NCBI GenBank assembly: GCA_965277715.1
Contig: OZ255836.1
Span: 3,520,001-3,584,000, forward strand
Direction of reading: 5' to 3'
DNA length: 64,000 bases
DNA from: Gammaproteobacteria bacterium
Lineage (GTDB): Bacteria; Pseudomonadota; Gammaproteobacteria; JBCCGL01
Below the pieces are notes generated by a model. The model did not search any database. It worked only from the letters and a program-made list of their open reading frames with translations, and had not been told where the DNA came from. Positions 39,286 to 64,000 of this stretch are shown here, piece after piece. The position numbers and the translations under genes were made by a program. The stretch's first letter is position 1; every line of letters begins with the position of its first letter.

Positions 39286-39380
39286 ACCTGCCGAGGGGCG
39301 TTGCGACAGAGAGGGTTGTATTTTTATTAACCTAGCTCTGCCAGGCTCGGTGTGGTCAAGTTTCTGTAAACGACGCTCGC
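39286..39380 (+). ncRNA. SAH riboswitch
   Basis: CCGAGGGGCGTTGCGAC...GCCAGGCTCGG...AACGACGCTC, the typical SAH riboswitch elements, directly upstream of ahcY. Confidence 0.88.
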
Positions 39381-39398
39381 TGATGACGGAGGTGCACA

Positions 39399-44706: not shown

Positions 44707-46260
44707 ATGATTAGCCGGTTATCATTTCTTAGTGGCTATCCTCGATACTTGCCTGGTTATTTACATATACTGGCGCTGTTAGCAGGAGGCGCACTGCCCT
44801 TTGCATTTGCCCCATTTGAATGGCGATGGCTTGCGTTTGTATCGTTGGCAATGCTCTTTTTCTTGTGGTCTCAAGGAAGTGTGCGAGTGGTTGTATTACG
44901 CAGCTTTCTATTCGGTATAGGCATGTTTGCTGTAGGCGTTTATTGGGTGTACTACAGTCTTCATCTGTTTGGTGATGCAATTGCACCATTGGCATTGATC
45001 ATTACCGTTGGTTTTATTGGCTTATTTGCACTGTTTATTGCGTTGTCCGGTTGGTTGGTGGCGCGTTTTTTCCCATCGCCGACGTCAACCCGTGGGCGTG
45101 TCGTATGGTTTGTGACTGTCGCACCTGCAGTGTGGGCTTTGTGCGAGATCTTTCGTGGATGGTTTCTAACAGGATTTCCCTGGCTTTCAGTAGGTTATTC
45201 TCAAATCGATACTCCACTTGTAGGATATGCACCTATACTAGGTGTATATGGTGTCAGCTGGTTGGCGGCAATTTGTGCTGGTCTAACGTATTTATCCATC
45301 GCTGAAAGATACAAAGTGAAACTATTAGCCCTGTGTGTAGTTGTACTCATAGGTTTTGGTGGTTTTCTTCTTGGTAAAGTAGAATGGTCTGAGCCCCATG
45401 GTGACCCGATAAAAATCAGGTTGGTGCAAGGTAACATTGAGCAACATCATAAATTTATGGCTGATTTGCTTACCCCTTCGATTGAAATGTACAAACGGTT
45501 GAGTGAAACGTCTGAAGATATTGACCTAATTGTTTGGCCCGAATCGGCTATACCGACGTTTTTTTTTCGTATTGATAAATCGCTACGTGATTTTACTGTG
45601 CAAAAAAGTGCTGAAGGGACACAAGTGCTGACGGGTGGGTTTGTCTTTGACCGGGAAAAAGAGGTTTACTATAACAGCCTGCGTATGCTTGATGATCCAG
45701 ATGCTTACTACCACAAAAAACACCTGGTGCCATTCGGTGAATTTATACCGTTTCGATCAGCATTGGCCTTCTTGTCAAAATATATTGCTATTCCGATGTC
45801 AGACCTATCACCAGGTACTGATGGTGGGAAAGGACTTGTTGTCAATGGGCAGGTTATTGGTGCCTCTATTTGCTATGAAGATGCCTTCGGCGAAGAGATT
45901 ATCCGGCAGTTGCCTGAAGCCAATCTATTACTTAATGTCAGTAACGATAGTTGGTTTGGTGATTCCTCTGCCCCTTATCAACATCTGGAGATTGCTAAAA
46001 TGCGAGCGGTGGAAACGGCCCGTCCAATGGTGCGCGTAACAAATACAGGCGTATCGGCAGTTATTGATTATCGTGGTAGAATTCACAGTTTGCTTGGGGT
46101 CTCTCAGTCAATCGCAGTTAATGTATCTATTCAACCACGAATGGGTGCTACTTTGTACGTTAAAAATGGGAATCTTAATGTGCTGATTTTGGTGTTTTTT
46201 GTGCTTATTATTGGATGTTGGTTTTGTCGAACAAACATAAGGGCTAATTTATGGCTTTAA
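44707..46260 (+). CDS. lnt: apolipoprotein N-acyltransferase
   Basis: GFPW, WPESA, KKHLVPFGE, ICYE, NDSWFG. Confidence 0.96.
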   Translation: MISRLSFLSGYPRYLPGYLHILALLAGGALPFAFAPFEWRWLAFVSLAMLFFLWSQGSVRVVVLRSFLFGIGMFAVGVYWVYYSLHLFGDAIAPLALIITVGFIGLFALFIALSGWLVARFFPSPTSTRGRVVWFVTVAPAVWALCEIFRGWFLTGFPWLSVGYSQIDTPLVGYAPILGVYGVSWLAAICAGLTYLSIAERYKVKLLALCVVVLIGFGGFLLGKVEWSEPHGDPIKIRLVQGNIEQHHKFMADLLTPSIEMYKRLSETSEDIDLIVWPESAIPTFFFRIDKSLRDFTVQKSAEGTQVLTGGFVFDREKEVYYNSLRMLDDPDAYYHKKHLVPFGEFIPFRSALAFLSKYIAIPMSDLSPGTDGGKGLVVNGQVIGASICYEDAFGEEIIRQLPEANLLLNVSNDSWFGDSSAPYQHLEIAKMRAVETARPMVRVTNTGVSAVIDYRGRIHSLLGVSQSIAVNVSIQPRMGATLYVKNGNLNVLILVFFVLIIGCWFCRTNIRANLWL

Positions 46261-47276
46261 CTGCAGAAATATATTTAGCAGTTCTTCTTGCAGGTTTGGG
46301 GAGCTTTGTTGCTATTCAATTGCTTAGGCCTCTCGCGAATAAAGTTGGTTTGGTGGACTTGCCCGGTGACAGAAAATCTCATGTGGGGCAGGTGCCTCTC
46401 GTTGGAGGTGTTGCTGTATATGCTAGTTTAGTGCTGTCATTGGTGGTGTTTTCTGAACTTGATACGAAACTATTTTTTTTGTTTTCTACTGGGATCATTA
46501 TACTTTTCACAGGTATGGTTGATGATTATCGAGAGCTAGGTGCAAAGCTCCGAATCTGTATACAAATCGCAGTTACTTTCATAATGATCGAAGGTTCTGG
46601 TGTTTATCTGCACTCGCTTGGCGATTTGCTCGGCTTTGGTGATATTGTTTTGGATACTATTTGGGGAAAGTGTTTTACTGTCTTTGCTGTTGTAGGGGTT
46701 GTCAATGCATTTAATATGATGGATGGAGTGGATGGCTTGGCGGGTTGTTTGGCATTAGTTGTCGTATTGGGTGTAGTTATTAGTGAATATTTGTCCGGGC
46801 AGTATTTTTATTCTGGTCTTTTAGCTATTTTTTCGGCTGCAATGATTCCCTATTTAATGATTAACCTATCGGTTTTATCGAAACAAAAAGTCTTTTTAGG
46901 TGATGCGGGGAGTTGTTTTATTGGTTATTTGTTAGCCTGGGTGTTGATTGATATATCGCAGGGAGAAAATTCCGTTATTAATCCAGCCAATGCATTATGG
47001 CTAGTGGCTGTTCCTTTGTTGGATATCACTGCAGTAATGATTAGACGTATAGGTCGAAAACAGTCTCCCTTTCAAGCAGATCGTAGCCACCTACACCATT
47101 TATTACAAGATAAGGAGGTATCTTCGTCTAAAATTCTGGGTATAATTTTAATGTTCGCCCTAATAGCTATTCTACCGGGGATATTGATACCTGTTTCAAG
47201 CATTGCTTTCGGGCTGTTTAGTGTATTTATGATTGCGTATACCGTTTCGGTTTTTCGATTATCGGATACAAGCTAA
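46251..47276 (+). CDS. wecA: undecaprenyl-phosphate GlcNAc-1-phosphate transferase (MraY/WecA family)
   Basis: NAFNMMDGVDGL, VFLGDAGS, ADRSHLHH. Confidence 0.9.
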   Translation: MALTAEIYLAVLLAGLGSFVAIQLLRPLANKVGLVDLPGDRKSHVGQVPLVGGVAVYASLVLSLVVFSELDTKLFFLFSTGIIILFTGMVDDYRELGAKLRICIQIAVTFIMIEGSGVYLHSLGDLLGFGDIVLDTIWGKCFTVFAVVGVVNAFNMMDGVDGLAGCLALVVVLGVVISEYLSGQYFYSGLLAIFSAAMIPYLMINLSVLSKQKVFLGDAGSCFIGYLLAWVLIDISQGENSVINPANALWLVAVPLLDITAVMIRRIGRKQSPFQADRSHLHHLLQDKEVSSSKILGIILMFALIAILPGILIPVSSIAFGLFSVFMIAYTVSVFRLSDTS

Positions 47277-47341
47277 ATATATAATTACTTAAAGTGGTGG
47301 AGATTGAAATCTTAGCTGAAACCAAGGTGAGTGTATTATCT

Positions 47342-47842
47342 ATGAAAGGATGGTTTTTACTTCAAACAAAACCGAGGCAGGAACAGCGTGCCATTGCAAA
47401 TCTCGAGCGGCAAGGTGTTTGTACTCTATGCCCATATATAGGCGTAGAGAAACTGTATCGAGGTCGGCGAGTTATAGCTAGAGAGGTTTTGTTTCCTGGG
47501 TATTTGTTTATTAATCTTGAATATACTTCCTCGTCAATAACTGCAATTCGCTCGACCAGGGGGGTTACTCGATTTGTGGCGTTTTCTGGTGTTCCTGTCG
47601 AAGTGCCAATTCATCTAATTGAACAATTGCAGCAAACTGAAAGAAATCCAGTGTGCAACGTGATTCACTCTACATTGCCTCAGCCTGGTGATGTGTTAAA
47701 AGTATTGAAAGGTCCTTTTCAAGGCCTCAACGTTATATTTTTCCAACCTGATGGTGAGCAACGCGCTATTGTGCTTATCAATATTTTGGGCCAACAGAGT
47801 AAAGCTTCTTTTTCCTATACTAATTTGTGCAAGTCTGATTGA
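47342..47842 (+). CDS. rfaH: transcription antiterminator RfaH
   Basis: WFLLQTKPRQE, LFPGYLF, IRSTRGV, KOW GPFQG. Confidence 0.9.
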   Translation: MKGWFLLQTKPRQEQRAIANLERQGVCTLCPYIGVEKLYRGRRVIAREVLFPGYLFINLEYTSSSITAIRSTRGVTRFVAFSGVPVEVPIHLIEQLQQTERNPVCNVIHSTLPQPGDVLKVLKGPFQGLNVIFFQPDGEQRAIVLINILGQQSKASFSYTNLCKSD

Positions 47843-47849
47843 GTTTTAT

Positions 47850-49024
47850 GGTTCTTTCCCGGTTGTGGGAGGCATAATATTTTATACCCTTTGCTATTTT
47901 GAGAGAACCCGGTGTTATCAAGCATTGAAGAACATCACAGTCAGCTCCTGGGTCTGATAGATGGCGGGTCAGTAACCTCAGTTGATTTAGACCCATCAGG
48001 GTTAAAAGTATATGCATTTCGTTGGTGTTTAGCGGTGATCAGAGTCCTTGCTCGCACGCATTCCTCGGGTAAGCTGCCCAGCACATGGTGTTAAAAGCAT
48101 GGTATTACCCTGGGCAAGCAAGAGCAGTCGTTTTACATTGTTATTTGAACTATTTTCCATCAGGGTGTTGCGAGTCTCAGGTAGTGTCGAAGAGGCGCGT
48201 AAGTTACTGGGGCTTAGCTGGAACGCGGTGGAAGCCATCAAAGTCCGAGCTGTCGAACGGGTTCTTTCGCGTCGGGAATTGATTACAATAGAGCACCTTG
48301 GTACTGATGAGAAGCCTCACCGTAAAGGGTATGACTATGTGACGCTCATCAATGATATTGACGCAGGGCGAGTATTGGATGGGGTGAGAGATCGCACGCA
48401 GGCAGCCTGTGAGGAGGCGTTAGAGGTTGCGCTGACGGATAGCTAGCGAGAACAGGTGAAAGCTGTCGCGATTGATATGTGGCCTGTGTTCATTAATGCT
48501 GTTGAGGTAAAACTCGCCGACAGTGCGTGCGATTGTTCACGACCGTTTTCACATTAGGTAACACCTCAATAAGGCGGTTGATCAGGTGCGTTGTGTTGAA
48601 CATAGAGCGCTTCTGTCAAAGGGTGATACCCGGTTGAAAAAGAGTCGTTATCACTGGCTAAAAAACGAAGAGAATTTATCTGATAAAGCAGCCAGGCATT
48701 TTGAATCACTGAAGAATGATCAGTTATTGACAGCGCGAGCCTGGGCGATAAAAGAACTGTTTCGTGATGTTTGGATGTATAAGACGGCGGGTTGGACAGT
48801 ATCAAGAAAGTGGCAAAGATGATAAAAGCTTATTTGCCGAACATATTGACCTGGTTTAAGCACACAATAAGCAATGCTGTATAGAGGGACTGAATTCAAA
48901 AATTCAGGCGGTCAAATCGAATGCAAGAGGGTTTCGTTCGTTTGAAAATTACCGGCGGAGTATTTTATTTTACTATGGAAAGCTGGATATGGAACCCGTG
49001 GCTTCACAATAATCGGGAAGAACC
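47850..49024 (+). mobile_element. ISL3-family element copy 1, defective
   Basis: IRs GGTTCTTTCCCGGTT / AATCGGGAAGAACC; 8-bp TSD AGTTTTAT both sides; transposase split by stops and frameshifts. Confidence 0.9.
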
Positions 49025-49045
49025 AGTTTTATGGTGGATTAAATG

Positions 49046-49147
49046 TTGCAACAAAGTTTGTTTATTAATACAATGTTCATATCGTGAACAATGTGGTATT
49101 TAGCGATCTTCTGTGAATTCTTGATGAAAGAGTTCTGCGGTAGCCTG
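49046..49147 (+). promoter_or_regulatory. polysaccharide-operon promoter, palindromic operator and ops-like element
   Basis: TTGCAA-N17-TACAAT (49046-49074); TGTTCA-N5-TGAACA (49074-49090); TGCGGTAGCCTG (49136-49147) vs ops GGCGGTAGnnTG. Confidence 0.7.
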
Positions 49148-49169
49148 CCTGAAATAAATGTAAAAGACT

Positions 49170-49490
49170 ATGGATGTTTCGGATTTAGAGTATAAAGTTT
49201 TAAAAATTCTTGAGCATAACCCTCGTTTGACACAGCGTGATGTTGCCAAAGCATTGGGTCTTAGTTTGGGGAAAACACATTACTTGATACGTGCCCTGAT
49301 TGATAAAGGCTGGGTGAAGTTTAATAATTTTAGGTGCTCGACAAATAAAATAGGATACTCTTATCTGTTAACGCCGAAAGGAATGGTGGAAAAAACACGT
49401 TTGGCATGGAAGTTTTTAGCTCGAAAGCAGGAAGAGTACAATCAGTTGAAAATAGAAATTGAAGTGCTGCAAGGTGAACTTAAAAAATAG
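49170..49490 (+). CDS. EPS-associated MarR-family transcriptional regulator
   Basis: TQRDVAKALGLSLGKTHY, YLLTPKG..EK, KQEEY. Confidence 0.88.
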   Translation: MDVSDLEYKVLKILEHNPRLTQRDVAKALGLSLGKTHYLIRALIDKGWVKFNNFRCSTNKIGYSYLLTPKGMVEKTRLAWKFLARKQEEYNQLKIEIEVLQGELKK

Positions 49491-49727
49491 TTTAACTTAC
49501 CGTACATGTTTTTCTAGTATTTGTAAAAATAAATTCCATTTATGTCGGTATTTATGTGATAAATATTAATTGAAATAGTATTTTGATGGCTTAACTGAAA
49601 TTTTTTCAGTTTCTATAAATAAGTATGGTGCAGTATGTTTTTCGCTATAGATTAAGTACTTTATATAAATCGAATTTGAAATTTTGATAACTAAAAACCT
49701 GATTTGTTTTTTTGCTGTTTTTGAGAT

Positions 49728-49976
49728 TTGGCTGGTTTTAAATTGAACATATGTTCTGTGATATTGGCGGGTGGTTATGGTACGCGATTATGGCCACTTT
49801 CACGTGCTATGCGCCCCAAACAGTTTTTACCGTTAGTTGGTAGCGGCACCATGCTGCAAGCGACAATCAAGCGAACGTCAGCATTAGATATTCAATCGAC
49901 CCTCATTGTTTGCAATGAAGAGCATCGTTTTCTTGTGGCCGAACAGCTCTGTGGAATTGCTCAACCTGGATTTATT
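49728..49976 (+). pseudogene. manC: mannose-1-phosphate guanylyltransferase, truncated by ISL3
   Basis: ILAGGYGTRLWPLSR..PKQFL, CNEEHRFLVAEQL, then the ISL3 IR; remainder absent. Confidence 0.88.
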
Positions 49977-51056
49977 GGTTCTTCCCCGGTTTGTGTGAGG
50001 TTATAGTATTTCATCCCCCCTTTGCTATTGAGAGACTCCGGTGCTATCGAGCCTTGAAGAACACTACAGCCAGCTCCTGGGTCTGACAGATGACTGGTCA
50101 GTGGTGTCAGTTGATTTAGACCCTTCAGGGTTAAAAGTATCCATTTCGTTGGCGTTTAGCGGCAACCACGGCCCTTGCTCGCACTGTGGAGGGGCTTAGC
50201 TGGAACGCAGTGGAAGCCATCAAAGCCCGCGCTGTCGAACGGGGACTTTCGCGTCGGGAATTGGTGACAATTGAGTACCTGGGTATTGATGAGAAGTCCC
50301 ACCGTAAAGGGCATGACTATGTGACGCTCATCAATGATATCGATGGAGGGCGAGTATTGGATGGAGTGAAAGATCGCACCCAGGCAGCCTGCGAGGAGGC
50401 GTTGGAGGTTGCGCTGACGGATAACCAGCGAGAACAGGTGAAAGCTGTCGCGATTGATAGGTGGCCTGCGTTCATTAATGCCGTTGAGGTAAAACTGTCA
50501 GACAGTGCGATTGTTCACGACCGTTTTCCTATTAGCCAACACCTGAATAAGGCGGTGGATCAGGTCCGTCGTGACGAACATAGAGACCTTTTGTCACAGG
50601 GCGATATCCGGTTGAAAAAGAGTTGTTATCACTGGTTAAAAAACGAAGAAAATTTGTCTAACAAAGCAGCCGAGCGCTTTGAGTCACTCAAGCATGATCA
50701 GTTATTGACAGCCCGAGCTTGGGCGATAAAAGAACTGTTTCGTGATTTTTGGACGTATAAGACAGCGGGTTGGGCAAAGCGTTTCTTTGACGAGTGGTAT
50801 TCATGGGCAATTCGGTGCCGATTGGACAGCATAAAGAAAGTGGCCAAGATGATAAAAACGCACATGCCGAACATATTGACATGGTTTAAGCACACAATAA
50901 GTAATGCCGTGTCAGAGGGTTTGAATTCAAAAATTCAAACAGTCAAATCGAATGCAAGAGGGTTTCGTTCGTTTGAAAGTTACCGGTGGAGTATTTTGTT
51001 TTACTGCGGAAAGCTTGATAGGGAACCGGTGGCTTCACAATAACCGGGGAAGAACC
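49977..51056 (+). mobile_element. ISL3-family element copy 2 (internal N-terminal deletion; residual DDE ORF 50186-51043)
   Basis: IRs GGTTCTTCCCCGGTT / AACCGGGGAAGAACC; GIDEK, SNAVSEGLNSKIQ; no matching TSD. Confidence 0.9.
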
Positions 51057-51221
51057 TTTTTGTTCAAGGGTTTATGGTGAATTCATTGTAACAAAATAAT
51101 CGAATATTCAGGCCTCTTTATTTCTTCTTAACCGGGCAGCAGTGAGATGAAAGAAAAATTTTTGTTGGGAATAATCAAATTTATATTACGAAAAAAATTC
51201 GATATCTATACACTTCTTTGA

Positions 51222-52583
51222 ATGAAATTTGAACTAGTGCAAAATCTCATTGTGAATGTTAAGTATTTTTACCGTAACCAATTTGGTCGTACAGTTGTAG
51301 CCAACTACGTGGCTGCAGTAACAGGGATTCTTGCACCCCTTATAGCTTTGCCTTGGTATCTCTCTACTTTGGGTAGCGTGCAATGGGGATTAGTCAGTTT
51401 TATAGCAGTTTTACAGGCAATGTTAAGCCTATTGGATGCTGGTTTATCTCAAGCTTTAGTTAAAAAATTTTCAGAATACCGAACAGAAATTAAAAAAAAT
51501 AAGAAGTTTTTAAATTTATTTTTTTCAATGGAAAGGCTAAGTTGGATTTTTTCTGGAGCTTTAGCTGTAATTGTGATTGTATTTTCTTCTGCTATATCTG
51601 AACTCTGGTTGCAAACACATGATGAAATTGTACCAAATGGGCAATTAACTATAATCGGTGCTGCGCTAATTTTTTTCTGGGTGAATGGCGGTTCTATATA
51701 CCGCTCTGTATTGATAGCTTCAGACTCGCAAATTGCGTTGAGTGTGCTGTCTTCTATAAGCATAATAGTAAGGCATGCAGCTACTGTAGTGGTTTTGCAA
51801 TTTCATCCATTTTTAATTGCTTATATTGCTACTCAAATTCTATTTTTAGCAGTAGAGGTAATGGTTCGAAAATTTATATCTTTTATATGTATTGGTAAAG
51901 ATAAAGGGCAATGGGATTTTGAATTAATTAAAGAACTTGGAACATATTTTGCTGGAATGATAGGAGCCACGCTTGTCGGGGTTTTAACTGTACAACTAGA
52001 TAAGTTGATGGTAAGTAAATTTCTTTCTGTTGAAAAGCTAGGATATTATTCTATAGCATCTGTAATTGGTTTAGGAGTTTTACAATTAGTTTACCCCATG
52101 ATGTACGCAAATTTACCAAAATTATCTGTTTGTAAGAAAAAAAGCAAAGTTCGATCTCTTATTAATTTAAAAACATTTGTTTTTTTTATTGTAGTAATTT
52201 TTTTTTCATGGTTTTTATACATAAAATTTGGCAAACATATTTTAATATTTTGGATAGGTAACATTGGTACTGTAGATATTATCTATCCAGTTGTAACTGT
52301 TTTATTAATCGGCAGTACTATTAATGCATTTTGGTGTATAGGGCAAATTAATCTTATCGCAGATGGGGACTATCCCCAAATCGCTAGAATAAATTTTCTA
52401 ATTCTTGGGGTTGTCTGTGTTGTGATGCCTATTACTATTAATAGTTTTGGAATGATTGGTGCTGCATACTCATGGGTACTTTTAAATTTAATAGGGTTTT
52501 TTATTACTTGCTCTTGGGTTGTTAATCTGATTGAAATATTTTTTCTGAAATTCTATAAAAATAGTTTTTTAACAAGAAATTAA
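51222..52583 (+). CDS. wzx: Wzx-type polysaccharide flippase
   Basis: Many TM segments, LLDAGLS, QLDKLMVSKFLS..LGYYS. Confidence 0.8.
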   Translation: MKFELVQNLIVNVKYFYRNQFGRTVVANYVAAVTGILAPLIALPWYLSTLGSVQWGLVSFIAVLQAMLSLLDAGLSQALVKKFSEYRTEIKKNKKFLNLFFSMERLSWIFSGALAVIVIVFSSAISELWLQTHDEIVPNGQLTIIGAALIFFWVNGGSIYRSVLIASDSQIALSVLSSISIIVRHAATVVVLQFHPFLIAYIATQILFLAVEVMVRKFISFICIGKDKGQWDFELIKELGTYFAGMIGATLVGVLTVQLDKLMVSKFLSVEKLGYYSIASVIGLGVLQLVYPMMYANLPKLSVCKKKSKVRSLINLKTFVFFIVVIFFSWFLYIKFGKHILIFWIGNIGTVDIIYPVVTVLLIGSTINAFWCIGQINLIADGDYPQIARINFLILGVVCVVMPITINSFGMIGAAYSWVLLNLIGFFITCSWVVNLIEIFFLKFYKNSFLTRN

Positions 52584-52615
52584 AAAAATTATGAAAAATA
52601 TTTTCGATAAAGCTA

Positions 52616-52988
52616 AGGCCTGTTGACGTTTGGCTATAAATTTTTGAAACAAAAGGCAAACTCGTATCATTAGATGTGAGAAAAACAACAAATACGAGTT
52701 TGCCATGCCCCGATTATTGCTCAACGATGAGTATTGGTCGAAGCTACGGAGTATCATGCTTAAAGAAGGCATTTATGACAAGCCGAAGTTAAGGTTAGTC
52801 GTTGAAGGAATTCGTTATCGATTGCGTGTGGGGTGTCCGTGGCGAGATTTACCGGTGTCATTTGGTGACTGGAATAGCGTTTATAAACGCGTCAATGACT
52901 GGTCATCGAAAGACAAGTTAATGAACATTTTCCATGCGCTTGTCGAAGAACCCGATCAAGAATGGGCGTTTATTGATGGAAGTATTGT
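52616..52988 (+). mobile_element. IS5-family element, left part only, cut by ISL3 copy 3
   Basis: IR AGGCCTGTTGACGTTT; ORF from 52705 with GCPWRDLP, W.SVYKR, FIDGSIV; also truncates a gene start MKNIFDKA at 52591. Confidence 0.88.
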
Positions 52989-54211
52989 GGTTCCTCCCCG
53001 GTTTGTGTGAGGTTATAGTATTTCCTCCCCCTTTGCTATTGAGAGACTCCGGTGCTATCGAGCCTTGAAGAACACTACAGCCAGCTCCTGGGCCTGACAG
53101 ATGACTGGTCAGTGACATCAGTTGATTTAGACCCTTCAGGGTTAAAAGTATCCATTTCGTTGGCGTTTAGCGGCAACCACGACCCTTGCTCGCACTGTGG
53201 CGAAGTGAGTCCGTTCTATGATCACCGTTCACAAGAGCGATCCTGGAGACACCTGGATACTATGCAGTTTGAAACGTGCCTACACAGTCGCATTCCCCAG
53301 GGTGTTGCAAGCCTCACGTAGCGTCGAAGAGGCGCGTAAGTTACTGAGGCTTAGCTGGAACGCAGTGGAAGCCATCAAAGCCCGCGCTGTCGAGCGGGGA
53401 CTTTCGCGTCGGGAATCGGTGACAATTGAGTACCTGGGTATTGATGAGAAGTCCCACCGTAAAGGGCATGACTATGTGACGCTCATCAATGATATCGATG
53501 GAGGGCGAGTATTGGATGGAGTGAAAGATCGTACCCAGGCAGCTTGTGAGGAGGCGTTGGAGGTTGTGCTGACGGATAACCAGCGAGAACAGGTGAAAGC
53601 TGTCGCGATTGATAGGTGGCCTGCGTTCATTAATGCCGTTGAGGTAAAACTGTCAGACAGTGCGATTGTTCACGACCGTTTTCCTATTAGCCAACACCTG
53701 AATAAGGCGGTGGATCAGGTCCGTCGTGATGAACATAGAGACCTTTTGTCACAGGGCGATACCCGGTTGAAAAAGAGTCGTTATCACTGGTTAAAAAACG
53801 AAGAAAATTTGTCTGACAAAGCAGCCGAGCACTTTGAATCACTCAAGCATGATCAGTTATTGACAGCCCGAGCCTGGGCGATAAAAGAACTGTTTCGTGA
53901 TTTCTGGATGTATAAGACAGCGGGTTGGGCAAAGCGTTTCTTTAGCGCATGGTATGCGTGGGCAATTCGGTGCCGATTGGACAGCATAAAAAAAGTGGCC
54001 AAGATGATAAAAACGCACATGCCGAACATATTGACATGGTTTAAGCATACAATAAGTAATGCCGTATCAGAGGGTTTGAATTCAAAAATTCAGACAGTCA
54101 AATCGAATGCAAGAGGGTTTCGTTCGTTTGAAAGTTACCGGCGGAGTATTTTGTTTTACTGCGGAAAGCTGGATAGGGAACCGGTGGCTTCACAATAATC
54201 GGGGAAAAACC
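52989..54211 (+). mobile_element. ISL3-family element copy 3 (internal deletion/frameshift; ORFs 53052-53321 and 53218-54198)
   Basis: IRs GGTTCCTCCCCGGTT / AATCGGGGAAAAACC; WRHLD motif; near-identical to copy 2. Confidence 0.9.
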
Positions 54212-54314
54212 TTTTTTTATAAGGTGCTAGTGAGAATTGAAGAAGTAATCGCCTGAAAAAGTTGTATTTTATACGCTGTAAGTTTTTATGTTAAGTGCGC
54301 CTATTTTTTTACCT

Positions 54315-54942
54315 TTTTTTATCTGCATATGATTGTGGATGTTTTTAGTCGAAAGATTGTTGGCTGGGCGGTGCATGATCGGGCGTGTGGTGAACGGGCT
54401 TCGGCGTTGGTGCGCCGTACCGTTATGGCAGAGAGAGATATAGGCGGCTCGCAGATACTTCATGCAGATAATGGGGCACTTCAGCGCTCTTCAACCTTGC
54501 GTGTGACACGGGAACGATTAGGTATAGAGTCGAACTATAGCCGTCCACGAGTGAGTTATGATAACGCGTATTCTGAGTTGTTGTTCCAAACGACAAAGTA
54601 CTGACCTGGTTACCCGGTTGACGGGTTTGCAGGTCTCGAACAGGCCTGGTACTGGGTATTGAGTTTTGTCCGCTGGTACAACACAGTGCGTCGTCATAGT
54701 GGAATTGAGTTTGTAACACCAGTGGAGCGGCATACGGGTGCTGATAATGAAATTTTAACGCGACGAAAGGCCGTTTATGAGAGAGCTAAAGCTCAACACC
54801 CAACCTGTTGGAATGGCAAAACCCGCGACTGGTCGAGACCCACTGTCGTTAAGTTAAACCCTGATAAACCGGTTCATAGTGGACTCTCTAAATTAGAGGT
54901 CGCTGCTGAGTAAAAACGCGCAACTACCTTGACGAATATTGC
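54315..54942 (+). mobile_element. IS3-family transposase C-terminal remnant
   Basis: IVDVFSRKIVGW, LHADNG, SRPRVSYDNAYSE, in-frame TGA at 54602, WYNTVRRHSGI..VTP; 5' part missing. Confidence 0.85.
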
Positions 54943-54983
54943 CGTGGCTTCATAATAGTCGGCGAATAATCGAAAATTATAAT

Positions 54984-56444
54984 ATGTTAATATCAATTTA
55001 CGCAATAGTTTTTTTAGCATTGGGCTTAATTTCCATATTTCTATTTCATAGTAGTATGTATGTGCCGATATTAATTTCTATTTTTGTATCCTTGATAATT
55101 TCGGTTTTTTTGTTTAGGCAATTTAAACTTAAAAAAACTGGCACTTTAATGTTATTGCTGTGGCTAGTTTATGTGTTGCCATTTATTCATATAGTGCCCT
55201 ACTTATGGTTCGATTTTTATAAAGATGATCCATGGCTTTTGTGGGGATTGAAAGTTAATCCGTATATGGTTGATGAAAATATTATCATGTTAACAGCTAT
55301 GATTGGGGCAGTAGGAGGACTTGGGTTTGCATTAGGTGTATCACTTACTAATAGTAAAATTGTAAATGATCAACGTTTTGAATTAGGAATGAAACCGACA
55401 AGAATTGAAACGTTATCAACTCCTATTTGGATTTTTTGGGTCATAGTCGGGGTTACTCTTTCCTGGTTGGCCGCACCGCAGGAAACGGTTTTTACATCTG
55501 CATATACTGAATCTGTGTCGATTCTTCAGGATGTTAATTTTAGTAGCGCGTGGATGTTTTCTTATGTGTTGTTAATTTTCTCTCTATGTGATGCTATAAT
55601 TGATAGCAATCCTGTTCGAAGAACTTTTAAAAGATATTTTATTTTTGGGGTAATAGTATTCGTTGTGGTTTTCCTACAACTTTTAAGAGGTGATCGAGAA
55701 TCTTTGCCTTTTGTTTTTAGTATTATATTGATTTATTTTTATTGGGCTGCCCCTATTACTCAAAAACACCGAGTAAGAATGCCTTGGGCAATATTAGTGT
55801 CCGGTGGGTTAGGTTTGCTGGTAGTTGCTTTAATGGTTGGAGTGCTGCGTTCTGCGCTTGTAAATATTTCTGATTTTAATGCTGTTTTGCTTTTACTTGC
55901 GGAGATGGGAGAGTCTGGTGTTATTCGTTTGGAAAACTTATTTTATGGAACATGGTCTGCAGTACTATTAACACCGCTTTCTGTTGCTGGTGATCATATC
56001 AATGGACTGCTTCCTTTGAAGTATGGGGAAACCTACCTGGATTTTATTTTGTCGATCCCACCAGGATTTATTGCCGATTGGATTGGGTACACACGACCTA
56101 TCAATGCTTTTGCTGGACCCGCTTGGGACATGCGTTACGGTCTTGGAGGAACTCATGCCAGTGTTGTACCATTCATGAACTTTCAAATAATAGGTGTATT
56201 TTTAATTCCTGCTTTGTGGGCTTATATTATCGCACGATATGAAAAAAAAGCATTGAGTAGAGTAAGTGTTATTAATCTTTCATTGCTAGGAGTATTAGCT
56301 ATGGCTTCCCCTCATTGGTTATGGTACGGTGAAAAAAGCGTTATTAATGCAATTATTATTTGGATGGTGTTGGTTTTTGCGTATCGGGTTAGCTTATCTC
56401 TACCGAGGGTTTTTTCAGTGCAGCGTTTTTCAATGCCTACCTGA
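54984..56444 (+). CDS. putative Wzy polysaccharide polymerase
   Basis: Multi-TM protein with RGDR motif and a large loop, inside a Wzx locus. Confidence 0.6.
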   Translation: MLISIYAIVFLALGLISIFLFHSSMYVPILISIFVSLIISVFLFRQFKLKKTGTLMLLLWLVYVLPFIHIVPYLWFDFYKDDPWLLWGLKVNPYMVDENIIMLTAMIGAVGGLGFALGVSLTNSKIVNDQRFELGMKPTRIETLSTPIWIFWVIVGVTLSWLAAPQETVFTSAYTESVSILQDVNFSSAWMFSYVLLIFSLCDAIIDSNPVRRTFKRYFIFGVIVFVVVFLQLLRGDRESLPFVFSIILIYFYWAAPITQKHRVRMPWAILVSGGLGLLVVALMVGVLRSALVNISDFNAVLLLLAEMGESGVIRLENLFYGTWSAVLLTPLSVAGDHINGLLPLKYGETYLDFILSIPPGFIADWIGYTRPINAFAGPAWDMRYGLGGTHASVVPFMNFQIIGVFLIPALWAYIIARYEKKALSRVSVINLSLLGVLAMASPHWLWYGEKSVINAIIIWMVLVFAYRVSLSLPRVFSVQRFSMPT

Positions 56445-56632
56445 GTCGGTAGTTTGAGAGCAGTCATAACTGTTACTATGATTTTGTTTGTGAAAATATT
56501 ATTATTTGACTCTGCATGTAAACAATATATGGTGATGAATACCATTTTTTAAATTTTTATATCTCAATTTTGTTGAGTTATATTCGTAGTTGATTGTACG
56601 CTTTTTGAAAAACTTTGCCAAAGTGGTGTGTT

Positions 56633-57703
56633 GTGAGAATTTTAATAGTAGGTGATTGGCATTCAGAGCTACATGAAGAAGTCGTATTTAGTGCTTTGGA
56701 CACGTTAGGACATGAACTATTAAAATTTGCTTGGCATAGTTATTTTGAATCAACTAACAAAATTAGTAACTTTAATAAAAAACTTCAAAATAAATTTATA
56801 ACTGGACCAATTATTCGCAAAATAAATCAAGATTTATTAGGGATAGTTTTAAGTTTTTCTCCAGATATGGTGTTTGTATATCGTGGAACACATATCATTT
56901 CATGCACTTTAAAAAAAATTAAACAAAAGTCACCAAAAACTATCCTAATAGGATATAACAACGATGATCCATTTGCCAAGGGACATCCGTATTCGTTGTG
57001 GAAGCATTTTTTTTCCGCAGTTCCTATGTATGATTTAATGCTCGCATATCGTCAAAAGAACATTGATGAACTCTATGGCGTTGGTGCGAAACGTGTAGAG
57101 TTATTGCGTTCTTGGTATTACTCGGAACGAAATTTTCCGGTTACTCTCTCTTTTGAGGATGAAAATAAGTATGGATGTGATGTTGTATTTGTTGGCCACT
57201 ATGAAGCAGATGGTCGAAAGCACTATTTAGAAATCTTGAGGAAAAATGGTATTAAACTGAATTTATTTGGGCCTGGATATGACTGGGATCCAGTAATTGA
57301 AAAGTCACCTGAGCTGAAACCTCTGATGCCTATAAATTTGGTTTGGGGCGAGGAATATAATAAGGCACTTTGTGGTGCAAAAATAGCATTATGCTTTCTT
57401 TCTAAACTAAATTCCGATACTTATACTCGTCGTTGTTTTGAAATTCCTGCTACTCGTACAATGATGTTTTCTGAATATACTGATGATCTTGCAAGTTTAT
57501 TTGAAGAGGGAAAAGAAGTTGAGTTTTTTCGCAATAAAAAAGAATTTTTAGAAAAAATTAAATTTTATCTGGCGAATGACACGCAGCGTGAAGCTGTAGC
57601 AAAAGCTGGTTATAATAAAGTGTGTGAGGAAGGGCATGATGTTATTTCTCGCATGTCTCAGGTATTGATTTGGGTTGATGAGATAAAAGAGAAGCAGATA
57701 TGA
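56633..57703 (+). CDS. glycosyltransferase (CgeB/GT-B type)
   Basis: DVVFVGHYE, TRRCFEIPA, LFEEGKEV motifs. Confidence 0.8.
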   Translation: MRILIVGDWHSELHEEVVFSALDTLGHELLKFAWHSYFESTNKISNFNKKLQNKFITGPIIRKINQDLLGIVLSFSPDMVFVYRGTHIISCTLKKIKQKSPKTILIGYNNDDPFAKGHPYSLWKHFFSAVPMYDLMLAYRQKNIDELYGVGAKRVELLRSWYYSERNFPVTLSFEDENKYGCDVVFVGHYEADGRKHYLEILRKNGIKLNLFGPGYDWDPVIEKSPELKPLMPINLVWGEEYNKALCGAKIALCFLSKLNSDTYTRRCFEIPATRTMMFSEYTDDLASLFEEGKEVEFFRNKKEFLEKIKFYLANDTQREAVAKAGYNKVCEEGHDVISRMSQVLIWVDEIKEKQI

Positions 57704-58398
57704 AATTGTTACGCAAAACTATCGATGTAGTATCTTTATTATTGGGTAAAATTAAGTATAAGCAAAGTATTTCAATACCTAATGATTCTATCGTTAAGGT
57801 AAATTTGGGCTGTGGTTTGGCAGTAGCTCCAGGCTGGATTAATATTGACGGCAGTCTTAATGCATTAGTAGCTACACTGCCAGCTTGGATTCATAAAATT
57901 GCTTACCGTCTAACGGGAGCAAAAAACTACTACAGTGAGAAAGAGTATCTTTGTTTGCTTCGAAATAATCGATTTGTTCATCACGATTTATCTTATGGTT
58001 TGCCTATCTCGGATAGTTCTGTAGATATTTTATATTCATCTCATTTTATTGAACATCTTTTTCGAAATGATGCGATAAATCTTTTAAAAGAAAGTTTTCG
58101 CGTCCTTAAACCAAAAGGCATACTTAGAGTATCAGTACCTGATCTTGAGTATGCAATATCATTATATTCAAATGGTGAAAAAGAAAAAATGTTATCTGCT
58201 TATTTTTTTGTAGATGATGATGATAGTTATTACGCTCGTCACAAGTACATGTATGATTATAGCATGATTTCGGGTATTTTAAAAAATGTTGGATTTAAAG
58301 ATGTTTATCGCTGTGATTATCAACAAGGACAAGCACTTGATTTAAATTTTCTTGATAATAGGCCTGATGAATCTCTATTTGTTGAAGCTGTACGTTAG
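57700..58398 (+). CDS. class I SAM-dependent methyltransferase-like protein
   Basis: VNLGCG, GWINID, YSSHFIEHL, RVLKPKG.LRVSVPD. Confidence 0.82.
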   Translation: MKLLRKTIDVVSLLLGKIKYKQSISIPNDSIVKVNLGCGLAVAPGWINIDGSLNALVATLPAWIHKIAYRLTGAKNYYSEKEYLCLLRNNRFVHHDLSYGLPISDSSVDILYSSHFIEHLFRNDAINLLKESFRVLKPKGILRVSVPDLEYAISLYSNGEKEKMLSAYFFVDDDDSYYARHKYMYDYSMISGILKNVGFKDVYRCDYQQGQALDLNFLDNRPDESLFVEAVR

Positions 58399-59767
58399 TG
58401 TGCCCTAATATTTTTGTTCTTCCGTGTGCCGTAGAGCAAAGAGTGTAGTAAGGCAAGAAGCTTTGCGACACTCAGAGCGTAAGCTCATAAGAAGATGGTG
58501 GTAGGCCCACCAGAGTCTGTTGTCGGTAACCGGCTTCAAACCACCCCAAGCTGCGTGCGTTAAGAGCGTAGGTGGTGAGCGTTGGGGAAAAGTCAATGCA
58601 AGAACATTGGCAGGTAAGATAGATGAGAGACGAGTAAACCCGAATACGTGTTGACGTGTCGAAACCAAATTGATAAGACATCAGAACCAGGGACGGGAGT
58701 TACAACTGGGATAAGTCTGTGCGTGAATGCTGAATGCGGCGGAGGTGGTGTCTGGCATACAGTGTACGTGACTGTGTATCAGGCTTTTTATGGGAACTGT
58801 GGGAACCAGTCGTTGTGATGCAAAGAGAGAAATACAAATCGCAAAAACGGTAAATATGAGAGTATCGAAGCACAGCACTGGGGCGGAGCTGTTCGTAGTA
58901 GTGATGAAGTGTTTGTAATGAACGTGGAGCGAAGGGGCAGCGTCAGATGGTTCTTTAAAGTGTTTACAACTGTCTTAGGCAGGAGGATATTCACGGAACA
59001 GAACAAAGACGTTAGGGCCTGTTGACGTTTCACATGGGTAACCAAAGAAAGGAGCATGCTAAGGCGAGCATGCTCCGATAATTCCGCTTCAACTTATCAT
59101 ATCGGGTGGCAATCGCTCGAAAATGCTTCAATCGAGCAAACACATTTTCAACCAGGTGTCGGTATTTGTATAAACACCAGTCGATATCCTCATTGCCTAT
59201 TTTTGAGTTGCTTCGCCGTGGAATAACCGGAACTGATTTTTTCTGTCTGATCTGATGGCGTAACGCCTCGCTGTCATACCCTTTGTCAGCCACCACATAC
59301 TCACTTTTTGGCAAGGCATCAATCACTTCAGGAGCCGCTGTGGAGTCATTAACCTGCCCAGCAGTGATGTCAAATAATACGGGCAACCCAAACCCATCTA
59401 CAATCATGTGTATTTTCGTTGTTTTCCCGCCTCGACTGTTGCCAATGGCTTGATTTTCATGCCCTCTAGCCCCTGCACTATGTTGGTGTGCCTTCACAAT
59501 ACTTCCATCAATAAATGCCCATTCTTGATCGGGTTCTTCGACAAGCGCATGGAAAATGTTGATTAACTTGCCTTTCGGTGACCAGTCATTGAAGCGTTTA
59601 TAAACGCTATTCCAGTCACCAAATGATGCCGGTAAATCTCGCTACGGACACCCCACACGCAATCGATAAAGAATTCCTTCGTAAGCGCCAAAGAATAGAC
59701 GTCTAGCAATTACTCGGGTTGGTCCTCACACTGCACCACAGCAACCCAATACCCGCATAGGTGTAGT

Positions 59768-60085
59768 ATGAGCAATAAAGAACGTGCGTCGTACTGGCGC
59801 AATCAAATTGAACAATGGCAAGCATCCGGTTTGAGTGGTGCGCAGTTTTGCCAGGATAACGGCATCAACTTGAAGCAGTTTTACTATTGGCACCGAAAAT
59901 GTTCCCGTAAAACTATTCAAGCAGTGCAGAGTAACATGCCTGTAGCAGGCTTTACCCAAGTGATGGTGGCTGATAGGCAAAGGGCTGATCCGGGTTTGTG
60001 TTTTACGCTGGCCAATGGCTGTGCCATTTCTGGCATTACCGCCGCTAACGTGACGTTAGTTGGCGCGTTACTGGCGCAGTTATGA
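59768..60085 (+). CDS. IS66 accessory protein TnpA
   Basis: W..SGLSGAQFC...FYYW HTH. Confidence 0.85.
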   Translation: MSNKERASYWRNQIEQWQASGLSGAQFCQDNGINLKQFYYWHRKCSRKTIQAVQSNMPVAGFTQVMVADRQRADPGLCFTLANGCAISGITAANVTLVGALLAQL

Positions 60086-60450
60086 TGGCCCGTTATTTAC
60101 GGCCATCGCTCGATATTCCAAAGGTGTTTTTATACCGAGAGGCGGTGGACTTTCGTAAGCAAAGCAATGGCCTTGCGGCCATTGTTGAGCGAGAGCTGGG
60201 TCACAACCTGTTTGATGGTGGCTTATACGTGTTTACCAATCGCCGCCGCAACAAAATCAAGTGTCTGATGTGGGAGGACAACGGTTTTGTACTGTATTAC
60301 AAAGCCTTGGCCGAAGAGCAATTTAAGTGGCCTGACCTCGATGAGGAAGTCATATCACTGACCGGCACACAAATAAATTGGTTGCTTGATGGCTATGATT
60401 TAGCCGCAATGAAAGGCCACAAAGTATTGCATTACGAATCTGTTTTTTAG
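60082..60450 (+). CDS. IS66 accessory protein TnpB
   Basis: VDFRK, FTNRRRNKIKCL.W..NGF, WLLDG. Confidence 0.9.
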   Translation: MMARYLRPSLDIPKVFLYREAVDFRKQSNGLAAIVERELGHNLFDGGLYVFTNRRRNKIKCLMWEDNGFVLYYKALAEEQFKWPDLDEEVISLTGTQINWLLDGYDLAAMKGHKVLHYESVF

Positions 60451-60501
60451 CCTGCTAAAGGGTGAAAAAGTGTTTAATTTTAATGATCTTTAGACAGCTA
60501 T

Positions 60502-62136
60502 TTGGTATTATTACGCGATGGTTTTGGCATCGGAAATTCAACAAAAACAACGCAATTACACCGGCTTAACGGCGGCTTAACGGCGGCTGAATTAGTGGCC
60601 GTGCTGGCAGAAAAAGAAGCCGAATTAGCGCACCATAACCAAATTATTCAACGTCACAAAAACACCATTAAAAACCGCGATCACTACATTCGTTTGCTGG
60701 AAGAACGGTTGCGTCTTTCCAAGGTTCAGAGGTTCGGCGCTAACAGCGAAAAGCTTGCCTTCCAGATTGACTTGTTTGATGAAGCGGAACTCGAACAAGC
60801 CATTGTCGACATTGATAACCAACTACCGGATGAGTTGCTACCTCAGCCTACGACCACGAACAAGAAAAAACGTCAACGCGGCTTCTCCAACCGTTTACCC
60901 CGTGTGCGCGTTGAGCTAGCCTTAAGCGATGAGGAAAAAGCAGGCGCTACACGTACTTTCTTTGTGAAAGTCAAAGAAGAACTCCAATACATTCCCGCAC
61001 AACTCAACGTTTTAGAGTACTGGCAAGAAAAGGCCGTCTTCAGCTACGCAGGTGATGACCACATCATCGCCGCGCAACGCCCCATACACCCTTTGGGTAA
61101 GTGCTTTGCCAGCACGGCTCTGCTCGCCAACATCATGGTGTCCAAATACGCCGATGGGTTGCCCTTGTATCGCCAGGAAAGCATTTTAAAGCGTTATGGA
61201 CATGCCGTGAGCCGCACCAACATGGCCAACTGGATGATTCGCCTGGAAGATGTCTTAAAACCCCTGATGACCTTGCTGCGGGAAAGTCAAAATGCCGGTG
61301 ATTATGTGCAAATGGACGAAACGCGTATCCAGGTACTCAAAGAAAATGGCAAAACCGCCCAATCCGATAAATGGATGTGGCTAACGCGCGGTGGCCCTCC
61401 AGCCCAGCCCAGTGTGTTGTTTGAATACGACCCCTCTCGTTCGGGCGAAGTGCCGCAACGCTTACTGGAAGGTTTTCAAGGCACTCTGCAAGTCGATGGC
61501 TATTCAGGGTATAACGGGGTGTGCGAACAACAAAATCTGACACGTATTGGTTGCTGGGATCATGTGCGCCGAAAATTCATTGATACCATTAAAGCCGCCG
61601 ATAAAGCAAACACGAAAAAACCCCGTGCCTCGAAAGCCGATGTCGCCATCGGTAAAATCCGCAAGCTCTATCTCATTGAGAAAAAGATACACGCGCTTGA
61701 ACCCGCAGAAAAACAAAGGTTTCGCCAAACACTTAGCCAACCGATATTAGAAGACTTCAAACAATGGCTGGATAAGCATATTACCCAGGTGGCTAAAAAG
61801 TCCCTTACGCGTAACGCCATGGACTATGCACTGAATCAATGGCATACCCTCACAGGCTACTGTGATGATGGACGGTTACACATCAGCAACGTGCTGGCTG
61901 AAAATGCCATTAGGCCTTTTGCCGTGGGTAGAAAAGCCTGGTTGTTTGCCGATTCAACCCGTGGCGCCCATGCCAGTGCCACATGTTACTCATTGATCGA
62001 AACGGCCAAAGCTAATGGGCTTGAACCCTATGCGTACATACTGCACGCCCTTAATCATATCGGCAGTACGGATACTCTTGAAAAGATAGAGGTCTTGCTG
62101 CCTTGGCATGTCGTTTTGGACATTACCTTGGAATAG
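60502..62136 (+). CDS. IS66 DDE transposase TnpC (likely frameshifted from its natural ATG at 60518)
   Basis: PLYRQE, MDETRIQVL, DGYSGY, CWDHVRRKF, AENAIRP, LLPW. Confidence 0.88.
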   Translation: MVLLRDGFGIGNSTKTTQLHRLNGGLTAAELVAVLAEKEAELAHHNQIIQRHKNTIKNRDHYIRLLEERLRLSKVQRFGANSEKLAFQIDLFDEAELEQAIVDIDNQLPDELLPQPTTTNKKKRQRGFSNRLPRVRVELALSDEEKAGATRTFFVKVKEELQYIPAQLNVLEYWQEKAVFSYAGDDHIIAAQRPIHPLGKCFASTALLANIMVSKYADGLPLYRQESILKRYGHAVSRTNMANWMIRLEDVLKPLMTLLRESQNAGDYVQMDETRIQVLKENGKTAQSDKWMWLTRGGPPAQPSVLFEYDPSRSGEVPQRLLEGFQGTLQVDGYSGYNGVCEQQNLTRIGCWDHVRRKFIDTIKAADKANTKKPRASKADVAIGKIRKLYLIEKKIHALEPAEKQRFRQTLSQPILEDFKQWLDKHITQVAKKSLTRNAMDYALNQWHTLTGYCDDGRLHISNVLAENAIRPFAVGRKAWLFADSTRGAHASATCYSLIETAKANGLEPYAYILHALNHIGSTDTLEKIEVLLPWHVVLDITLE

Positions 62137-63662
62137 AGGCTGATTTAAGGGCGCTTACATTCCTTCAACGACTAACCTTAACTTCGGCTTGTCATAAATG
62201 CCTTCTTTAAGCAAGCTACTCCGTAGCTTCGACCAATACTCATCGTTGAGCAATAATCGGGGCATGGCAAACTCGTATTTGTTGTTTTTCTCACATCCAA
62301 TGATACGAGTTTGCCTTTTGTTTCAAAAGCTTAAAAGCTTATAGCCAAACGTCAACAGGTCCTAGGCTATTTGTAGCAAAAGTGGACTGTAGACTGGTTC
62401 AGGAAGATACGTTTGTGGTTACATGATTTGTTTACCCATAGACGGGCAGGAACAGGCGAGGGTTTGTCTGATGGGAGCGGTATGAATCGAGAGGTTCACG
62501 TACCGTTCTGCGAGGGGTTGCGGGGGAGGTTCCCGCTGCCTACTCACCTGGTTTGTGTGAGGCTATAGTATTTCATGCTCCTTTGCTATTTTGAGAGAAC
62601 CCGATGTTATCGAGCCTTAAAGAACACTACAGTCAGCTCCTTGATCTGACAGATGAGTGGTCAGTGACATTAGTTGATTTAGAGACCCTTCAGGGTTTAA
62701 AAGTATCTATTTCGTTGGCGTTTAGCGATGACCAGGGTCCTTGTTCGCACTGTGGCGAAGTGAGCCCATTCTATGGCCACTGTTCACAAGAGTGATCCTG
62801 GAGGCACTTAGATACCATGCAATTTGAAACATGTTTGCACAGCCGCATTCCTAGGGTAAACTGTCCGGAACATGGTGTTAAAAGTATAGCGTTACCGTGG
62901 GCAAGCAATAGCAGTCGTTTTACGTTGTTGTTTGAATTATTTTTCATCAGGGTGTTGCCAGCCTCACGTAGCGTCGAAGAGGCGCGTAAGTTACTGGGGC
63001 TTAACTGAAACGCGGTGGAAGGAATCAAAGCCCGAGCTGTCGGGCGGGGTCTTTCGCGCCGGGAGTTGGTCACAATAAAGAATTGTTATCACTGGTTAAA
63101 AAACGAAAAAAATTTACCTGACAAAGCAGCTGTACACTTTGGAATTACTGAAGCATGATCAGTTATTGACAGCACGGACCTGGACGATAAAAGAACTGTT
63201 TCGTGATTTTTTGGGGGGATAAGGTGGCGGGTTAGGCAAAGCATTTCTTTGACAAGTGGTCTTTGTGGATAAGTCGGCGCCGACTGGACAGTATAAAGAA
63301 AATGGCAAAGATAATAAAAGCTCATTTGACGAAATATTGACATGGTTGAAGCGCACAATAAGTAATGCCGTATCAAAGAGCTTAAATTCAAAAAATCAGA
63401 CGCTTAAATCAAGCGCAAGAGGATTTTATGCGTTTGAAAGTTACCGGCAGAGTATTTTGTTTTACTGCGGAAAGCTGGATATGGAGTCAGTAACTTCACA
63501 ATAATCGGGAAAGCACCATTTAATTCAATGTGTATGCTGTAATTAAGATAATTTGATATGGAGTGAAAAAGAAGTGGTGTGCAATAGTTTTAATGCGAAG
63601 TTTTCAAATTTTCTAGGCATATCCAATATGTCAGTTAGCAACAATAGGTAATAATTTTCTCG

Positions 63663-64000
63663 ATGAAAACTCTTTCAATATGCATCCCAAGCTATAATCG
63701 ACCTGCTCAGTTATTCAAGCTACTCACGTCTATCGATTGTAGGCCGGAAGATATAGAAATTGTCATATGTGAAGACAAATCTCCAAAGCAAGAGGAGATA
63801 CGTTCTTTAGTTGAAGAGTACAAAACTCAATCTCTTTATAAAATAAGCTATTATCAGAATGAAAAAAACTTAGGGTTTGATGGTAATTTACGCCGATTAG
63901 TGAGTTTAGCAGCAGGCCGTTTTATTATGTTTATGGGTGATGATGATTTTTTTGTACCTGGTGGGTTAGATCGGTTTCTCTTGTTTTTGTCTGATAATAG
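63663..64000 (+). CDS. GT2 family glycosyltransferase (runs off window end)
   Basis: Hand translation MKTLSICIPSYNRP...IVICEDKSP...NLGFDGN...FMGDDD. Confidence 0.88.
   Translation, partial: MKTLSICIPSYNRPAQLFKLLTSIDCRPEDIEIVICEDKSPKQEEIRSLVEEYKTQSLYKISYYQNEKNLGFDGNLRRLVSLAAGRFIMFMGDDDFFVPGGLDRFLLFLSDN

Follow-up and report, generated by a model that had tools for sequence, protein, structure and literature searches.

Group II introns of the RmInt1 group are described as class D, IIB-structured and lacking an endonuclease (PMC4615759). RmInt2 of Sinorhizobium meliloti GR4 homes into both inverted repeats of ISRm17 (PMC4615759, PMC5894124), an insertion sequence (IS) of the ISNCY family (PMC10194956). 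Its retrohoming was shown experimentally and tolerates mismatches in the second exon-binding site, EBS2 (PMC4615759), and it has been argued that the use of IS repeats as targets doubles the number of targets (PMC4615759, PMC5894124). For RmInt1, it has been stated that the intron keeps ISRm2011-2 from spreading (PMC5894124). Here we describe an RmInt1-like intron that splits the left inverted repeat of an ISL3-family element in a Gammaproteobacteria bacterium (JBCCGL01). The window analyzed is a stretch of 64,000 nucleotides (nt), positions 3,520,001-3,584,000 of the forward strand of contig OZ255836.1 (assembly GCA_965277715.1), and all other coordinates refer to it. An earlier sequence-only reading had proposed a lineage of introns that targets ISL3 ends. 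We consider it likely that the locus records one ectopic event, in which a non-autonomous intron entered an ISL3 repeat and was subsequently overrun by two IS, and it is probably an insertion fossil rather than a targeting system.

The window contains three ISL3 copies. Copy 2 encodes a DDE transposase with a zinc ribbon and the ends of copies 1 and 2 carry the repeats GGTTCTTCCCCGGTT..., as expected for the ISL3 family. The repeat motif GGTTTGTGTGAGG occurs exactly three times, at 49988, 53000 and 62550; at the first two positions, where copies 1 and 2 have their left ends intact, it is directly preceded by GGTTCTTCCCC or GGTTCCTCCCC. At the third it lies downstream of an intron. The bases TGTTCTTCC at 58415-58423 are followed by GTGTGCCG from 58424, where the intron begins with GTGTG. 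Rfam covariance models identify the ribozyme on the + strand: the 5' motif of domains D1-D4 is complete at 58497-58615 (RF01999, 1-118 of 118, 101 bits, cut-off 36 bits) and domains V and VI are complete at 62473-62548 (RF00029, 1-77 of 77, 59 bits, cut-off 40 bits). The locus thus has a GUGYG start, the 5' motif and domains V/VI (D5/D6) with the catalytic AGC, the features of a group II ribozyme. Both the letters and the Rfam matches bear out the earlier placement of the intron 9 nt inside the left repeat of ISL3. The 5' border is independently marked by a contig from public run X5, which holds another copy of the intron and starts to match the window exactly at 58424. Statements on the public runs (X1, X3 and X5) apply among the contig matches listed.

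The 3' border required a correction. The window reads ...CTACTCAC up to 62547 and then CTGGTTTGTGTGAGG, and the sequence-only reading had rejoined the repeat by removing 58424-62547; the first of these positions stands, the second does not. One E. coli record has an intron of this clade in an H-repeat/ISAs1 transposase gene. All eight empty sites listed there (L138-L143) read CTGGACG/TGGTAATG, whereas at the filled site the intron (GTGTG...CTACTCACC) stands between CTGGACG and TGGTAATG. Empty and filled sites differ by the final C, which is therefore counted as inserted DNA. In the intron of a Methylobacter plasmid (L001) and in rhizobial introns at the FIDE/TW site, the reading frame of the host gene is regained solely when this C is removed, and the frame at two metagenome loci (L115, L135) also fits its removal, judged from the 3' exon alone. 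Because the inserted DNA of the clade ends with ...CTACTCACC, and because the Rfam match to D5/D6 also stops at 62548, we define the intron as 58424-62548. The rejoined repeat, TGTTCTTCC/TGGTTTGTGTGAGG, is then one base shorter than the left repeats of ISL3 copies 1 and 2. The ...CTACTCACC ending (seen in L002, L138-L143, L001, L115 and L135) is unlike the usual ...AY. An extra base ahead of GUGUG was also considered for the clade and rejected, as the empty E. coli sites place the base at the 3' end, as the final C.

We file the window intron as RmInt1-like (class D, IIB), an assignment drawn from its RNA and its relatives since the protein that would define its class has been deleted. It shares a 40-base D5 pattern with dozens of rhizobial introns, and several full-length relatives have exactly the same D5, letter for letter. 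Over domains I-III it is 66.7% identical to an S. meliloti match, and over D5-D6 it is 81.8% identical to matches in S. meliloti 1021 replicons, which are presumably RmInt1 itself. The D5 pattern and the D5-D6 identity, combined with the class D label given to RmInt1 in PMC4615759, are the grounds for this filing, and RNA similarity thereby upholds the kind of intron named in the earlier reading. Exon recognition is of IIB type, with EBS1, EBS2 and a separate EBS3 pairing with the first base of the 3' exon, as indicated by covariation in 42 introns (see below).

Four mobile elements are nested between 58415 and 63517: an IS66-family element lies in an IS5-family element (ISx), ISx in the group II intron, and the intron in ISL3 copy 3 (Table 1). 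Undamaged target duplications flank both inner insertions, ATTCCTTC around IS66 and TAG around ISx. Without ISx the intron measures 775 nt, as opposed to about 1.89 kb in its relatives, in which about 1815 nt separate the 5' end from domain V and which encode a reverse transcriptase (RT)/maturase of 416 amino acids (RVT_1 and GIIM domains, no endonuclease). Local alignments recover two remnants of the gene for this intron-encoded protein (IEP): the ribosome-binding and start region with about 20 codons, and roughly the last 15 codons. Given the shortened length and the alignment of both gene termini alone, the RT gene has been lost; none of the 44 open reading frames (ORFs) of the window that were scanned against Pfam has an RT domain.

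The order of the insertions can be read from the public runs. Intron contigs free of ISx join 58995 to 62363 with exactly the sixteen expected bases, at depths of 526.5 (X1), 102.3 (X3) and 22.7 (X5), and contigs identical to the window-specific junction of intron and ISL3 have depths of 301 (X1) and 14.5 (X3). ISx is likewise found without IS66, the joint from 59672 to 62159 skipping 2486 bases, with 8 bases that fit either side. These joints indicate that further ISx-free copies of the ORF-less intron exist and that ISx and IS66 were inserted later. Contigs of run X1 with other domain IV content reach a depth of only 2.45.

Table 1. Features of the nested locus and of the ISL3 copies in the window
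Feature	Position	Strand	Evidence or remarks
Bases 1-9 of the left inverted repeat in ISL3 copy 3 (TGTTCTTCC); 5' exon of the intron, holds intron-binding site 1 (IBS1)	58415..58423	+	8/9 match to GGTTCTTCC in ISL3 copies 1 and 2
Intron 5' segment: GUGUG start, domains I-III, start of domain IV, remnant of the IEP start region	58424..59015	+	RF01999; <=76.6% identity to relatives; alignment to the IEP start of relatives
EBS2, CCAAAT	about 58665..58670	+	Exon about -11..-16; -11..-13 pair with 58666-58668; register fuzzy by one base between subgroups
EBS1, GGAGTTA	58696..58702	+	Partner of exon -1..-7, column by column; 90-100% paired, six pair types at most
EBS3, C	58760	+	Pairs with exon +1; 95% paired, four pair types (A-T, T-A, G-C, C-G)
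TAG, 3-base duplication of ISx	59013-59015 and 62363-62365		Copies flank ISx
IS5-family element ISx in intron domain IV, 861 nt without passenger	59016..62362	-	Ends GGCCTGTTGACG / CGTCAACAGGTCC; DDE_Tnp_1
ATTCCTTC, 8-base duplication of IS66	59673-59680 and 62159-62166		
IS66-family element inside ISx	59681..62158	+	TnpB_IS66, DDE_Tnp_IS66
IS66 genes tnpA, tnpB, tnpC	59768-60085, 60082-60450, 60502-62136	+	
Intron 3' segment: rest of domain IV with IEP C-terminal remnant, domains V/VI, ending ...CTACTCACC	62366..62548	+	RF00029; empty and filled E. coli sites
Remainder of ISL3 copy 3: rest of left repeat, broken transposase gene, right repeat	62549..63517	+	83-84% identity to copies 1 and 2
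ISL3 copy 1	49977..51056	+	Both ends intron-free; internally deleted; interrupts nucleotidyl transferase gene
ISL3 copy 2	52989..54211	+	Both ends intron-free; inserted in second ISx copy; DDE_Tnp_ISL3 2.2e-72, Zn_ribbon_ISL3 2.2e-11

The exon-binding sites were mapped by covariation in an alignment of the first 460 nt of the window intron with 41 relatives, a non-redundant set with both borders identified, from which rows without a GTGTGCC or GTGTGCT start or without a recognizable 3' end were left out. For each exon position, the best-pairing intron column was sought. The sequence-only reading had chosen GGGAG (58695-58699) and ACCAA (58664-58668) as the exon-binding sequences and noted a CCAG/CTGG stem around the first; these coordinates are correct and both loops are the right ones, with pairing registers that need to be shifted. 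GGGAG lies one base off the EBS1 found in the 42 introns, and ACCAA had been paired with exon -7..-11, three to four bases away from the partner of EBS2. In most of the 42 introns, columns 58775 and 58760 (EBS3) hold identical bases, a covariation that is parallel and not complementary.

If the intron belonged to a lineage homing to the repeats of ISL3, the counterpart of RmInt2 in ISRm17, with the window copy as one decayed member, then EBS1, EBS2 and EBS3 should all be complementary to the repeat, and they are not. Of the 7 EBS1 positions, 5 pair at the occupied site (G-C, G-C, A-T, G-T, two mismatches, A-T), and of the 6 EBS2 positions at most 3 do. The C of EBS3 calls for a G at +1, where the site has a T. 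The predicted cognate IBS2, about ATTTGG at exon -11..-16, would fall wholly outside the IS, which starts at -9. The mismatches of EBS2 and EBS3 imply that the ISL3 repeat is not the cognate site. Every position of the window was also scored on both strands with the intron taken out, and 9628 of 119694 positions (8%) have a combined score at least as high as that of the occupied site. Intron copies elsewhere in the public runs have a G at 58700 (EBS1 GGAGGTA) and a G at 58693. The variant EBS1 pairs with the repeat at 6 of 7 positions, which is the strongest point in favor of the earlier reading, and with it the combined score is reached by 2612 of 119694 positions (2.2%). This near-match to the variant fits an ectopic, EBS1-led insertion and not a cognate homing site. 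With EBS1 scores of 4.5-6.0, the left ends of ISL3 copies 1 and 2 equal or exceed the occupied site, yet they are empty.

The distribution of the intron points in the same direction. Only one of the 6 ISL3 ends in the 64-kb window, the left end of copy 3, is occupied, and the other five are empty. We scanned genome, metagenome and viral contigs for the domain V/VI pattern and obtained 111 stretches (flanks examined for 80), 22 and 0, respectively. The repeat motif was found downstream of none of 138 domain V-bearing relatives (136 loci; within 65 bases, up to 3 mismatches), and no repeat-like 24-mer occurs anywhere in the 136 loci. None of 188 plasmid records covers at least 80% of the junction query. 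The sole other copy with flanks that can be judged is the one in run X5: one contig leaves the window match at 58424 and continues with 95 unlike bases, and another leaves it at 62550 and continues with 28 unlike bases. A copy in an ISL3 repeat would match on through GTTCTTCC and GGTTTGTGTGAGG, so the X5 copy is not in such a repeat. Several copies at the same repeat position, at both ends and in independent IS copies, are therefore seen neither in the window nor among the relatives, the plasmids or the X5 contigs, which lend no support to the proposal of a lineage that targets ISL3 ends.

We thus regard a repeat-homing lineage as unlikely. In its favor are the precise placement of the insertion within the repeat, after 9 of its bases, the presence of several copies of the intron in the runs that contain this locus, and a precedent in the same intron class (PMC4615759). 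Even such a lineage would belong to a kind already described, and the suggestion of an undescribed system was overtaken by the published account of RmInt2 in the repeats of ISRm17 (PMC4615759, PMC5894124). Among the papers listed by a literature search, none concerns an intron inside an ISL3 inverted repeat, judged by titles and the openings of abstracts.

A single ectopic insertion can account for the locus as follows. An RmInt1-like intron (class D, IIB-type) would first have lost almost all of its RT/maturase gene. It would then have reverse-spliced into the top strand of the ISL3 left repeat, between repeat bases 9 and 10, in an ectopic or relaxed-specificity event guided mainly by the short EBS1-IBS1 pairing, with the protein presumably supplied in trans. 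The IS5-family element entered domain IV of the intron afterwards, and IS66 finally entered the IS5-family element. Several points weigh against this account. Scored by EBS1 only, the variant, which is the majority form, places the site at rank 721 of 119694 (0.6%), better than a random landing. Because the intron and the IS have both decayed, changes in EBS2, EBS3 or the exon may postdate the insertion. The flanks in view are those of the window and the X5 copy, and this organism has further copies beyond these. Finally, no close full-length kin of the window intron was found in plasmid, genome, metagenome or viral contigs (best match 76.6%).

A broader version of events is that this sponge-associated bacterium harbors a protein-less class D family that continues to be copied in trans, and that the relaxed, EBS1-led targeting of this family repeatedly hits ISL3 repeats among other sites, making it a non-autonomous parasite that knocks out IS ends; we hold this to be improbable.

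It has also been suggested that the intron restrains the spread of ISL3. In the strong form of this idea, the intron would exert active control as a hyperparasite of benefit to the host, kept for immobilizing ISL3. The split of the repeat, by 775 nt originally and by 4125 nt now with the later insertions, would disable that ISL3 end, because a terminal repeat acts as DNA, which splicing cannot repair, and the same idea has been published for RmInt1 and ISRm2011-2 (PMC5894124). However, all three ISL3 copies of the window are already dead, each through different internal deletions; the transposase gene of copy 3 is broken by stop codons and lacks about 400 internal bases. The intron has no protein and is itself disrupted, and one end only is occupied. 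Any disabling of the copy 3 end is incidental, because this copy is dead anyway, and nothing points to selection for a restraining role. We consider a control element very unlikely.

Lastly, it is hardly credible that the intron homed to a cognate site of its own and that the nine ISL3-like bases are a coincidence, with copy 3 a 5'-truncated element abutting the intron: a rejoined repeat that is one base short with the family-correct 3' border and a first repeat base of T for G speak for this, but the probability of an 8/9 match to the first nine bases of the repeat at a fixed position is about 1e-4 by simple arithmetic, the downstream DNA resumes the repeat without a gap from base 10 or 11, and the intron's own EBS2 and EBS3 mismatch the site, which is therefore not cognate.

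The surroundings of the ISL3 copies show further rearrangement. The second ISx copy (52617-52988), which shows DUF4096 (52705-53010), is interrupted by ISL3 copy 2, and the DNA 3' of the right end of that ISL3 copy (54212-54330) does not carry on ISx. The 8-base flanks do not match at any of the three ISL3 copies. The discontinuity of ISx and the unmatched flanks suggest deletions or recombination between IS copies. In run X5, a contig of depth 37.9 joins an ISL3 right end (63511) back to a left end (62550), a joint that may reflect either two ISL3 copies side by side or a circle-type junction.

All three copies lie in a polysaccharide gene cluster (46251-64000) just downstream of a ribosomal protein operon. 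The cluster encodes a family-4 glycosyltransferase, a NusG paralogue, a flippase-like protein, glycosyltransferases and a methyltransferase. IS are numerous in the cluster, with three ISL3 copies, two ISx copies, an IS66 and an IS3-like integrase fragment (54329-54913), and its nucleotidyl transferase gene is interrupted by ISL3 copy 1 at 49977. Elsewhere in the window, an S-adenosylhomocysteine (SAH) riboswitch (39287-39385) stands directly 5' of an S-adenosylhomocysteine hydrolase gene (39399-40715), which adjoins an S-adenosylmethionine (SAM) synthetase gene, and a tRNA gene is located at 6714-6786 on the minus strand.

As found, the locus is a neat four-level nesting of mobile elements in an IS-ridden symbiont genome. 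Two results can be reused for the whole clade: the covariation-based map of EBS1, EBS2 and EBS3, and the recognition that the inserted DNA ends with ...CACC. Should a repeat-homing lineage exist after all, it would be a second, independent case of introns that home to IS ends, now in ISL3 and with a non-autonomous intron, and would bear on mutual restraint among selfish elements.

The nearest relatives of the window intron (up to 76.6% identity) are located in ISAs1-type transposase reading frames and at other sites. The best plasmid match to the 5' part of the intron has 76.6% identity over domains I-III, as has the best relative in the scans of genome and metagenome contigs, none of which is close. 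The intron of the Methylobacter plasmid, which lies in a transposase gene of the ISAs1 family, and the H-repeat/ISAs1 intron of E. coli (L002, and 17 of the 22 metagenome loci) share the ...CTACTCACC 3' end and the EBS architecture of the window intron, with 75-77% identity in domains I-III and 85-92% in D5-D6. Unlike it, they keep the 416-amino-acid RT/maturase (RVT_1 and GIIM, no endonuclease) and sit in coding sequence with 7-base EBS1 matches.

Group II introns without an ORF have reportedly been described by Dai and Zimmerly in 2003 and by Simon et al. in 2008. Like these, the window intron is a ribozyme without a protein gene that is present in more than one copy; unlike them, its loss is visible as an internal deletion that left both gene ends. 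The clade has other ORF-less members, with 631 nt from the 5' end to domain V in an Endozoicomonas metagenome-assembled genome (MAG; L008) and 728 nt in a Marinacidobacterales MAG (L036). The Endozoicomonas-type 3' end (...CTACTCTCC) has further matches, four of them in Endozoicomonas records, with differing 3' flanks that all start with A; the differing flanks hint at a dispersed family in that symbiont. In a Marinobacter piscensis contig (L005/L006) and at one more locus (L105), two full introns stand head to tail without a spacer (...CTACTCACC/GTGTGCCG...). Tandems have been reported for RmInt2 and ascribed to pairing of EBS3 (U) with the first G of the intron (PMC4615759), an explanation that is not directly transferable to the Marinobacter intron because its EBS3 column is A.

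The intron resembles RmInt1 in ISRm2011-2 (IS630 family) in its class, to judge from the RNA, and in its D5, which has the same pattern as that of rhizobial introns at the IS630-type '...FIDE' codon site. RmInt1, unlike the window intron, is autonomous and highly site-specific and sits in the transposase reading frame and not in a repeat. With RmInt2 in ISRm17, the window intron shares its apparent kind (class D, IIB-type, endonuclease-less, although its own protein gene is gone) and its position inside a terminal inverted repeat of an IS. RmInt2 is described as autonomous and present in seven copies, all of them in ISRm17 repeats and at both ends (PMC4615759, PMC5894124), and its authors stress a relaxed EBS2-IBS2 pairing (PMC4615759). 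The window intron differs from RmInt2 in having one occupied end, an ISL3 host, no protein gene, and an EBS2 and EBS3 that do not fit the site in which it lies.

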